Counted from the stretch's first letter, positions 1,097 to 3,930 are shown. The stretch: 64,000 nt of DNA from Candidatus Pacearchaeota archaeon (GCA_040879765.1 JBBDJQ010000001.1:333-64332); one strand, 5' to 3'. Notes: generated by a model from the sequence alone, not told the origin. Numbers and translations are program-made.

Positions 1097-3930
1097 TACT
1101 GTTATACTGTTAGATGGATAGCTTGGTTTTGGTAGATGAGGCGTGGCAAGCTGCGAAAAGTCATGGGGAGTTGCATGCAAACTTTGATCCATGAATACCT
1201 TTATTTCTGAGAAGAACTTACGCCGGGAATTGAAACATCTTAGTACCGGCAGGAAAAGAAAACAATAGTGATGCCCTTATTAGCAGCGAGCGAAAAGGGC
1301 CAAGGGCAAACCGAATCTGTCTTTGAAAAGAGATTAGAGATGTGGTGAGTATGAATACCTAAGTTGCCGACTCAAATTTTTCTGGGAAGGAAAGCCTTAG
1401 AGGGTGATAGCCCCGTAGAGGTAGGCGATATGGTGTTGCTCAAAGAGTAGGGCGTCCTGGATTGGGCGTCTGAATACCGTGAGAACCCTCGGGTTCTCGG
1501 GGCACAGAGAATCTTTGATTCTCAGTGTGGCGGGATTAACCGCTAACCCTAAACATAACCAAAGTCCGATAGTGAACTAGTACCGCGAGGGAAAGCTGAA
1601 AAGTACTCTTGGCAGAGTGTGAAAAGACTTGAAATCTAACAGTTAAAGATTGTTACGGCTCTAAGGAGTTGTAACGTACGTTTTGAAGAACGGGCCAGGG
1701 AGTTTACCTGCACGGCAAGGCTAACCAACTATGTTGGGTAACCGAAGCGAAAGCAAGTGTGAAAGCGCGTTAGTCTTGCGGGTGAGACCTGAAGCCAGAT
1801 GATCTATTCATGGACAAGGTGAAGTCTTTCGAAAGAGAGATGGAGGCCTGAACCGTTGTTGTGTACATGCACTCGAATGATCTGTGAATAGGGGTGAAAA
1901 GCCTATCTAATTTGGCGATGGCTGGTTCCTGCTGAAATATGCCTACGTATAGTCTTGTTTAGTTTGTTAACGGTGTAAAGCACGGATTAGTTTTGCAGGG
2001 GCAAAAGCTTACGGAAACTTTTCCAACTCAGAAGCTGTTAATTGCTTAGAACAAGAATCAGGGTGTGTATGTAAGATACACTTCCGAGACCGGAACAAAG
2101 GAGACTAAAGTTAAGGTCCCAAAATATTTGCTAAGTGTAACGAACTCTGTTTGAGGTCTGAGACACTGGGGATGTAAGCCCAGAAGCAGCTATCATTTAA
2201 AGAAAGCGTAACAGCTCACCCATTGAGACCTTGAGCGAGGAAAATGGACGGGGCTCAAGCAAATTACCGATACTTTAGCGGCACACTTATGTGTGTTCGG
2301 GTAAGCAGGCGTACTTATTGTGACGAAGTTTTTCCGAGAGGAAGGATGGAACGATAAGTAATGAGAATCCTGGTAAGAGTAGGATGTGATTTCCGTGAGA
2401 TACGGAAATGTCGAAAGAGCAAGGTTTCCTCGGCAATATATGTTAGCCGAGGGTTAGTCAGCACCTAAGTCGTCCCTTAACTGGAGACGACGATGGACAG
2501 CAGGTTAATATTCCTGCACCGATTGAATTTTTCAATATTTCGCTTCCGGATAAGTGAGCACTCGAAAGGGTGTTTGCAAGAAGAAAAGTGACGAGAGTAA
2601 TTCTTAGACTCATTAGAATTCTTGTAACAAAATCATTGATTCCAGGAGCCAGTGAAAAGAGTATTGTCTGTGAATTCAATTGGCTGTACCCACAACCGGC
2701 ACTGGTGCTCTAGCTGAGAAGGCTAAGACATGAAAGGCAAAACCGACCAAGGGAATTCGGCAAGTTAGCCCTGTAGCTTCGGCTGAAGGGGTGTCTATTT
2801 TTGTGTAATTGTTAAATTTTATGCATCAATAGATCTCAGTAACAAGGACGGCCCGACTGTTTACCAAAAACGTAGCCAAGTGCTAATCTGAAAAGACGTG
2901 TATACTTGGTGAGACCTGCCCAGTCGTGGTGTCTCAAACTCCTTTTCAAGGGAGCTAAGGCCCATGAAACGGCGGGGGTAACTATGACCCTCTTAAGGTA
3001 GCGTAATACCTTGTCGTATGAATTGCGACTTGCATGAATGGTTTAACGAGGTTGTCACTGTCCCTGGTTGGAGCCTTCTGAACATACCTCGTGGTGAAAA
3101 GGCCACGGACGCCTAGTGGGAAGCGTAGACCTTGTGGAACTTTACTGCAACTTGTTGTTGTAATTTTATTAAAGATGCATAGGATAAGTAGGAGCGTCGA
3201 AGCTGTCTTTTTGGAGGCAGTGGAGCAAAATTGTAATACTACTCACCTTTGATAAGATTGCTTACTCTTTATGGGAACAGCAGCAGGCGGGCAGTTTGAC
3301 TGGGGCGGTGCCCTGTCGAAAACATATCGATAGGACCCAAAGATAAGCTCACCTAGCTTGGAAATCTAGGGTTGAGTGCGAAGGCAAAAGCTTATCTGAC
3401 TGTATTCTGAAAAGCAAGGAATGCAGGGTGGAAACACGGGCTTAGTGAACCCACGTGCATTTTTAATAGATGCCGTGTCTGATAGAAAAGTTACCCCAAG
3501 GATAACAGGCTTGTCGCCCCCGATAGTCCATATTGACGGGGCGGTTTGGTACATCGCTGTCGGCTCTACCTATCCTGCGCGTGCAGAAGCGTGCAAGGGT
3601 GTCGGAGTTCACGCATTAAAAGGTATCGTTAGCTGGGTTAAGAACGTCGCGAGACAGTTTGTATGATATCTACTAGGTGTGTTATTGTCTGAGTGGAACA
3701 ATCTCATAGTACGAGAGGAACTGGGTTTGGGTGCCTCTGGTGAGCAGTTGTCATTGGCAGGCTGCATAGCTACGCACTGAATGGATAAGAGCTGAATGCA
3801 TCTAAGCTCGAAGCCATCCGCAAGACGAGACAATTAAAGCCGTCGAAAAACACGACGTTGATAGAGTTGCTGTGTACGCACGAAGGTTCGCCGACGTGTT
3901 CAGCAGACAACTACTAATAGCTTCACTTGA
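1097..3930 (+). rRNA. rrl: 23S rRNA, stand-alone (no adjacent 16S or 5S); ends approximate
   Basis: GAATTGAAACATCTTAGTACC; GTAACTATGACCCTCTTAAGGTAGC; P-loop CTGGGGCGG; GGATAACAGGC; sarcin-ricin loop AGTACGAGAGGAAC; archaeal-type CCTAGTGGGAAGCG. Confidence 0.98.

Follow-up and report, generated by a model that had tools for sequence, protein, structure and literature searches.

Inherited, order-wide base changes around an intact peptidyl transferase core in the 23S rRNA of a Candidatus Pacearchaeota archaeon

Why A2503, U2552 and G2576 of 23S ribosomal RNA (rRNA) are near-invariant, though catalysis needs none of them, is an open question, and it is raised afresh by an archaeal gene in which all three are replaced. 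The gene lies in a stretch of 64,000 nucleotides from Candidatus Pacearchaeota archaeon (GCA_040879765.1 JBBDJQ010000001.1:333-64332), given as one strand from 5′ to 3′; this whole stretch is called the window below. A first-pass annotation had noted substitutions at conserved positions of the peptidyl transferase centre and exit tunnel around an intact catalytic core, and had proposed a co-evolved, remodelled periphery. The changes are real and inherited and, but for a nearly private U2059, they are shared across an order or its class rather than private to this genome.

The gene, its numbering and its altered bases

The 23S rRNA gene occupies 1090-3935 and matches positions 1-2987 of the RF02540 model with 2167 bits, above the gathering score. 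It is the single match in the whole genome, which comprises 526 kb in two contigs and is 93% complete, most of its 16S being absent; the gene is thus the only copy, and it has no intron. Numbering follows the 23S rRNA of Escherichia coli (2904 nt, landmarks checked), against which the window shows no gap over 2030-2075 and 2435-2620. Alignment by Infernal with the archaeal large-subunit model, which had been proposed as a check, is also free of gaps over 2447-2612 and flags the non-standard pairs of helix 92, so that two alignments reject a shift of register. All ten bases named at first pass, from A2451 at 3505 to U2059 at 3126, were placed exactly. The features of the gene are as follows.

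1090..3935, plus strand: 23S rRNA gene, full length, one copy (RF02540 match)
1062..1083, plus strand: likely 5′ arm of the 23S processing stem, a 22-nt inverted repeat 95% complementary to 3945-3966
3945..3966, plus strand: likely 3′ arm of the same stem, complement of 1062..1083
1867, plus strand: U752 in the loop of helix 35, compensatory partner of A2609 as judged from covariation
2865, plus strand: C1782, likely tertiary partner of A2586, from 1782/2586 pairs read across sequences
3125..3126, plus strand: G2058 (ordinary in archaea) and U2059 (nearly private), from the E. coli alignment
3132..3133, plus strand: U2065 and U2066 of helix 74, paired with A2445 and A2444; order-wide swaps of C-G to U-A
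3498..3499, plus strand: A2444 and A2445, partners of U2066 and U2065 (A in 30/30 and 29/30 order rows)
3501..3507, plus strand: G2447-A2453 with A2451 at 3505, canonical core, from the E. coli alignment
3524..3534, plus strand: helix 89, with U2470 and U2480 replacing a G-C pair order-wide (30/30 rows each)
3553..3560, plus strand: 2499-2506, with A2499, frequent in the class, and C2503 at 3557, found throughout the order
3601..3615, plus strand: helix 92 and A loop, with G2551·A2557, A2552 at 3606, U2548·C2560 and C2549-G2559; G2553 (3607) to U2555 intact
3630, plus strand: U2576, order-wide
3639..3640, plus strand: U2585 (3639, canonical) and A2586 (3640), from the E. coli alignment
3656, plus strand: A2602, canonical, from the E. 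coli alignment
3662..3663, plus strand: U2608 and A2609, from the E. coli alignment

The claim that the catalytic core is intact is confirmed by the E. coli alignment for A2451, G2553, U2585 and A2602, and the P loop, the sarcin-ricin loop, helix 69 and A1067 are intact as well. Next to A1067, in helix 43 (window 2180-2181), C1065 and C1066 stand instead of U1065 and U1066, and some relatives carry one of these two changes. Support for the bases was sought in sequencing runs. Overlapping contigs, not reads, from the DNA run X1 cover 2978-4000 with 0 differences and carry U2059, though X1 is possibly the source sample and so gives no independent support. In four RNA libraries, drawn from three studies, between 98 and 2222 contigs per library are at least 95% like window 3470-3700, and at every listed site no alternative letter reaches a 30% share in these contigs, which derive from relatives and were chosen by likeness.

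Distribution of the changes

We tabulated the listed positions in three samples. The order sample holds 46 other genomes (the best 29 loci of 44 matching genomes, own genome excluded, and 17 more) and spans six families, with 35 of the 46 from the window's own family. For other orders of the class, 80 of 146 matching genomes were picked among the matches listed for family spread. The outgroup phylum sample takes 30 of 56 matching genomes; it was drawn with a canonical query and is therefore biased towards canonical bases, and the record of its centre is titled Methanomassiliicoccales. A phylum-level sample held no class besides that of the window's genome. Three odd loci (L249-L251) were excluded from the counts.

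C2503 is present in 46/46 genomes of the order, in 6/80 of the other orders (U in 13 more) and in 1/30 outgroup loci, 28/30 of which have A2503. A purine at 2552 is found in 46/46, 11/80 and 0/30, and U2576 in 45/46, 6/80 and 0/29, respectively; all three changes occur together in 45/46 genomes of the order versus 1/80 elsewhere. U2576 is thus no recent strain-level change, being present in 45/46 genomes across six families. The mismatch G2551·A2557, by contrast, is class-wide (46/46, 80/80 and 0/30). A2586 is carried by 43/46 genomes of the order (G in two, C in one), 16/80 of the other orders and 0/29 outgroup loci; U2608 by 44/46, 60 of the 76 read and 1/29; and A2609 by 41/46, 20/79 and 1/29. 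At 2059 the order has A in 34, G in ten and U in one of 45, which makes U2059 nearly private. The listed changes therefore fall in three layers: class-wide, order-wide and, for 2059, nearly private.

Several departures from E. coli are simply the ordinary archaeal state, namely the G2547·A2561 mismatch (30/30 outgroup loci) and, likewise in the outgroup, U2572, U2575 and G2058. The description of helix 92 as poorly paired was therefore right in part: G2551·A2557 and the pyrimidine mismatch at 2548/2560 (45/46 of the order) are unusual, whereas G2547·A2561 is ordinary for archaea and C2549-G2559 is a compensated pair. Folding helix 92 as a single strand was uninformative (z -1.2 for the window, -1.3 for E. 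coli). U2554 and U2555 are both kept in the window, and in 46/46 and 45/46 genomes of the order.

A pattern built from helices 91-92, of which 2503 and 2576 were not part, retrieved at least 120 loci; among the 120 listed, C2503 is present in all and U2576 in 119. By record title they comprise 39 Pacearchaeota, 32 Woesearchaeota, 20 Nanoarchaeota and 29 others. The order is most likely Pacearchaeales, a name inferred from likeness, since loci of all four title groups are 76-92% like the window and other orders of the class 66-73%.

In a 23S tree of 62 rows, with the trait columns omitted, the order's 22 rows group together as a single clade (support 100). The tree calls for 7, 7 and 4 changes at 2503, 2552 and 2576, and single changes recur on separate branches. 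A comparison of the whole gene identified 28 order-specific changes among 961 sites at which the E. coli base is retained in other orders, 13/275 in domain V versus 15/686 elsewhere (p 0.053), with some of the latter in poorly aligned stretches; a strong clustering in domain V was accordingly not upheld. Among the 28 are the helix 74 swaps C2065U/G2445A and C2066U/G2444A (G2445 in 30/30 outgroup loci), G2549C/C2559G, which keeps the pair C2549-G2559, and G2470U/C2480U; the last of these opens up a pair in helix 89 that is G/C in 30/30 outgroup loci. The idea of a co-evolved periphery thus survives in half: the periphery is remodelled and partly compensated (752-2609, 2065-2445, 2066-2444, 2549-2559), but it is not one co-evolved unit, because the changes are layered and single ones recur on separate branches.

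Some loci deserve mention in their own right. L166 (G268:C4), from another order, combines C2503, G2552 and U2576 with A2501, keeps fibrillarin and appears to be an independent convergence. Three rRNA contigs seem misbinned: L249, a canonical archaeal 23S piece inside a genome of the order; L250, an order-type piece inside a genome of another order; and L097, a 687-kb order-type contig within a 2.5-Mb genome of another phylum. Inserts near E. coli 1920-1935 and 2590-2600 occur in the 23S of several relatives (L004, L009, L013, L015, L017, L020, L026 and L028-L029), and none is present in the window.

Paired bases, modification enzymes and tunnel proteins

The best covariation concerns 752 and 2609, which form a standard pair in 54/59 sequences (18/18 in the order), with the states U-A 25, A-U 26, C-G 2, G-C 1 and five non-pairs; the neighbouring columns give 30, 5, 30 and 31 of 59, with no matched changes. 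On the tree four independent pairs agree and none disagrees (p 0.125). In E. coli, A752 and U2609 are already known to pair (PMC3299997). The covariation identifies U752 as the true partner of A2609. Position 2586, for its part, likely has 1782 as a tertiary partner: the pair is C·A in 21, U·G in two and C·C in one sequence of the order, and C·C in 26, U·U in six, C·A in five and U·A in three from other orders. C·A and U·G pairs are alike in shape. The suggestion that A2586 and U2608 compensate each other did not hold, since the combination is A/U in 42/46 genomes of the order but C/U in 42/80 other-order loci, with C/G, U/G, U/U and A/G in further loci, no covariation, and no pairing in the Rfam model. 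No partner for U2576 emerged from the covariation comparison. Position 2059 departs from A in 0/41 other-order loci with A2503, in 5/15 without it, and in 11/45 of the order.

Six families of rRNA-modifying enzymes were searched for in the window's genome. RlmE, fibrillarin, Nop5, RlmN and KsgA gave nothing over the cut-off in this 93% complete genome, in which controls were detected, and the sole enzyme found is the following.

19236..20231, plus strand: Cbf5/TruB-type pseudouridine synthase (TruB_N, TruB_C_2, DKCLD and PUA domains)

At E<1e-20, RlmE is found in 0/61 relatives versus 55/239 other-order genomes (54 of the genes being full length and the other truncated at a contig end), and in 0/24 genomes of the order's other families, five of which are shared with the set of 61. 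Fibrillarin is found in 2/61 relatives (weak, E about 1e-30) versus 156/239 other-order genomes, and in 1/24 genomes of the order's other families. Of the 80 other-order genomes, 7/12 with neither enzyme have a purine at 2552, versus 4/68 with RlmE or fibrillarin; by family the figures are 5/8 enzyme-lacking versus 3/45 enzyme-bearing. Kin genomes are not independent, which weakens this association, and we regard a tie between purine 2552 and methylase loss as a lead and not a result. A link of U2576 to enzyme loss was also considered and dropped (1/12 versus 5/68). Separately, families of the class for the most part have either RlmE or fibrillarin: f20, f29 and f33, for instance, have RlmE with little or no full fibrillarin, and f26 and f30 the reverse.

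The proteins around the tunnel differ as well. The uL4 tunnel loop (L301:963-1769) has 70 residues between anchors versus 51-54 in archaeal PDB chains; it measures 69-71 residues in 27/27 loci of the order and 68 in 27/29 others, so that it is 14-19 residues longer than in the PDB chains class-wide, with 2 more in the order. The uL22 hairpin (L301:3822-4415) has 19 residues (18-23 across the order, most often 21 in others) versus 26 in 6skf and is 5-7 residues shorter than in that structure. On these alignments, the tunnel constriction is reshaped class-wide through uL4 and uL22; since the extension and the short hairpin are mostly class-wide, an order-specific protein change was rejected. The uL3 loop is of the short archaeal type, free of gaps against the two best archaeal PDB chains and 2 residues shorter than 6skf, and no clear indel was seen in the uL3 and uL16 loops against PDB chains. 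The release factor keeps GGQ. A tunnel-lining gene that first seemed missing was then found as a divergent eL39.

16470..16673, plus strand: eL39, divergent, tunnel-lining (its 45 PDB matches are eL39 without exception, best E 0.004)

This eL39 has about 6 extra internal residues and a C-terminal extension, matches PF00832 at E 0.002, below cut-off strength, and lies between genes that we take, from their translations, to be eS19 and eL31. The PDB matches included no ribosome structure for this order, and a viral scan with uL4 gave no match.

Changes in rRNA also reach the small subunit. The 3′ end of the 16S, at the contig start just upstream of the window (L252:1-53), has C at E. coli A1499, and the corresponding 16-mer is present in 123/301 genomes of the class; divergence thus extends beyond the peptidyl transferase centre. 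A1492, A1493 and the helix 45 loop are intact in the last 53 bases, the part that is readable.

Explanations, known systems and neighbouring genes

With moderate confidence, we favour the account that constraint was relaxed once modification enzymes and tunnel signalling had been lost, and that pairwise compensation followed around an intact core; the changes in the shell would then likely stem from the loss of the 2′-O-methylating enzymes of rRNA. First, the shell is already loosened in the class as a whole, as seen in G2551·A2557, in the variable 2586, 2608 and 2609, in the longer uL4 loop and in the shorter uL22 hairpin. Second, in the genomes searched, RlmE was not found in the order and fibrillarin was nearly always missing. 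Third, with no enzyme needing U2552, a purine could replace it, and its stacking over G2551·A2557 likely keeps G2553 placed for C75 of the tRNA. Fourth, as covariation shows, swaps have preserved the pairs U752-A2609, U2065-A2445, U2066-A2444 and C2549-G2559, with 1782/2586 held as C·A or U·G. Finally, to judge from bacterial mutants, C2503 together with U752-A2609 would weaken nascent-peptide stalling and leave peptide bond formation unblocked, and a non-A base at 2503 appears to free 2059.

Bacterial work bears on these steps. A cell-free scan in E. coli found A2503, U2586, G2608, U2609, C2551 and G2557 mutationally flexible (PMC7049736). The bases at 2503 and 2586 have little role in synthesis and are needed for ErmCL stalling, through N7 in the case of A2503 (PMC5499644), and A752U/U2609A in E. 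coli lowers TnaC induction from 37.5-fold to 2.2-fold (PMC3299997, Table 2). In hypomodified E. coli ribosomes, which work 2-3-fold slower, misfolding affects the A loop, 2058-2062 and 2501-2506 (PMC13469067), and it is these stretches that are changed in the window. One chemical point belongs with the stalling step: a cytidine at 2503 is without the N7 that A2503 offers.

A number of observations weigh against relaxed constraint. Corrected for kinship, the link between the enzymes and 2552 comes down to three independent pairs that agree, none that disagrees and two that are tied (p 0.25); four enzyme-bearing genomes, one with RlmE, have a purine at 2552, and 5/12 enzyme-lacking genomes keep U. 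Absence here means not found in incomplete genomes and hence is no proof, and L166 joins C2503, G2552 and U2576 yet keeps fibrillarin. Domain V is no more than marginally enriched in order-specific changes. The strict fixation of C2503, rather than of any base, suggests a new constraint and not mere drift. U2552 is absent from the flexible list in E. coli and 2576 is unmentioned in the available text (PMC7049736), and G2576U slows Mycobacterium smegmatis 2.6-fold (PMC12428224); both purine 2552 and U2576 should therefore need compensation, which was not found.

A more pointed form of this account must be called tentative, and on balance we doubt it: across a whole order of abundant archaea whose ribosomes carry next to no rRNA methylation, the role of the near-universal Um2552 would be taken over by a purine at 2552 above a G·A pair, a state at which the class arrived repeatedly once enzymes were lost, and C2503, A2586 and the flipped U752-A2609 pair would give a tunnel without a stalling relay.

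It is also conceivable, though rather unlikely in our view, that the loss of enzymes and the changes in rRNA are unlinked, and that fast evolution and genome reduction produced both, the bases being fixed only because they arose along the order's long stem branch. That branch carries 0.17 changes per column, 15/28 order-specific changes lie outside domain V, C1499 of the 16S is class-wide, 2503 and 2576 are weakly or not linked to enzyme presence, and the independent-pair test just given speaks the same way. For 2552, however, no independent pair runs in the opposite direction, the purine is concentrated in enzyme-lacking families (the 5/8 versus 3/45 above), and 57/57 changes at this position give A or G and never C.

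Selection for escape from natural inhibitors that neighbouring microbes produce and that act on the peptidyl transferase centre and tunnel is less likely than relaxed constraint, and we think it improbable. The first pass had rightly named G2576U as a linezolid-resistance allele of bacteria: it is the main such allele in enterococci, and in M. smegmatis it raises the minimum inhibitory concentration 32-fold (PMC12428224). Antibiotic binding involves the 752-2609 pair (PMC3299997), the changes at 2503, 2552 and 2576 are repeated on the tree, and the same idea was raised for Thermoprotei by Nissley et al. (bioRxiv 10.1101/2024.11.12.623245). Yet linezolid is synthetic (PMC12428224), G2058 is already part of the archaeal background, the changes in helices 74, 89 and 92 and at 16S 1499 go beyond what drug escape needs, and bacterial alleles need not act alike in these ribosomes.

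Editing or modification of the transcript back to canonical bases, giving an ordinary working ribosome, was considered as several of the sites are near-invariant elsewhere; no support was found, the RNA-library contigs show no other letter at a 30% share, and the compensated pairs seen in the DNA would be pointless unless the ribosome used the encoded bases, so we hold it to be very improbable. A decaying gene copy or an assembly error, which an incomplete metagenome bin lacking most of its 16S might bring to mind, has next to no chance of being right, given that this is the only 23S copy, that the same bases recur in 45-46/46 relatives and 119-120/120 further loci listed, that the sarcin-ricin loop, P loop, helix 69, A1067, flanking stem and operon order are intact, and that U2059, the only base that could be a private error, is carried by the X1 contigs.

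The order amounts to a natural experiment in which all three near-invariant bases are changed and the 2552 methylases are not found in the genomes searched, while sister orders provide intermediates with and without the enzymes. It offers a way to ask whether the bases are held in place by modification enzymes, by nascent-chain sensing or by folding, and bears on ribosome engineering. It also bears on how "resistance alleles" in environmental archaeal rRNA are read, since here G2576U is the inherited wild-type state rather than an acquired mutation.

The closest known case is that of the Thermoprotei and Methanomethylicia, including Pyrobaculum calidifontis (Nissley et al., bioRxiv 10.1101/2024.11.12.623245), with which the window shares clade-wide changes in the shell, an unchanged catalytic core, an overlap with resistance alleles and a uL3 loop of archaeal length. 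Their changed sites are 2447, 2453, 2500, 2501 and 2504, and the window is canonical at all five (G, A, U, C, U), though some relatives in the order vary at 2453, 2500 and 2504; its own changes at 2503, 2552, 2551/2557, 2576, 2586, 2608/2609 and 752 lie instead on the side of the A loop and tunnel. Because it is canonical at these five sites and at 2554/2555, the window's centre is not of the Thermoprotei type, which is further marked by rearranged base triples in cryo-EM structures. It nevertheless works in a like manner, and it is new relative to the divergent archaeal centres described there in being variant at different positions. Thermoproteota with U2554C/U2555C (Nissley et al. 2023, PMC9976906) share natural variation of the A loop; the window differs in keeping U2554 and U2555 and changing 2551, 2552 and 2557. 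Um2552 is held in that paper to be a conserved modification needed for loop folding, whereas here U2552 itself is replaced and the searches gave no methylating enzyme.

Clinical and laboratory 23S alleles (PMC12428224, PMC3299997, PMC5499644, PMC7049736) fall on positions changed here, and G2576U and A752U/U2609A agree in the base as well; they are single or double mutants of bacteria, some of them costly, whereas here an archaeal order has such bases fixed as wild type, in a single-copy gene and another protein setting. E. coli ribosomes without RlmE and up to 11 other modifications (PMC13469067) likewise lose Um2552 and m2A2503 and have an active centre, but they misfold at stretches whose sequence this lineage has changed.

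As for precedent, our tabulation shows the variants to be clade-wide, a possibility the first pass had left open, but our literature searches listed no report of these changes in this order. Term searches of the available text of bioRxiv 10.1101/2024.11.12.623245 show that Pacearchaeota, DPANN, 2503, 2552 and 2576 are never named, and those of PMC12918454, bioRxiv 10.1101/2024.11.28.625670, PMC7459865, PMC11621547, PMC8997704 and PMC12124282 returned no mention of this clade at these sites. The name Pacearchaeota gave no hit in PMC9976906, PMC12918454, PMC8997704 and PMC11621547, nor did DPANN in PMC7459865. The first-named preprint (bioRxiv 10.1101/2024.11.12.623245) aligned 3,686 archaeal 23S genes and plotted entropy by position, and the present variants are probably latent in its alignment data.

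The surroundings of the gene are of some interest in themselves. The rRNA operon is linked, running from the 16S 3′ end through tRNA-Ala(UGC), which ends at window 29, and two open reading frames (ORFs) to the 23S, with a spacer of about 1.4 kb; the two spacer ORFs, of 139 amino acids (92-511) and 131 amino acids (447-842), overlap and have no Pfam match. After the 23S, three similar small ORFs of 103, 116 and 114 amino acids lie at 4035-5367, with no convincing Pfam match; two have in common a 193-base repeat (95% identity), and a 39-base upstream repeat recurs. In the ribosomal protein operon, a gene for an RNase T-family exonuclease (L301:1766-2419) lies between uL4 and uL23. Finally, an archaeal RNase P RNA followed by tRNA-Phe is found at 10452-10839.

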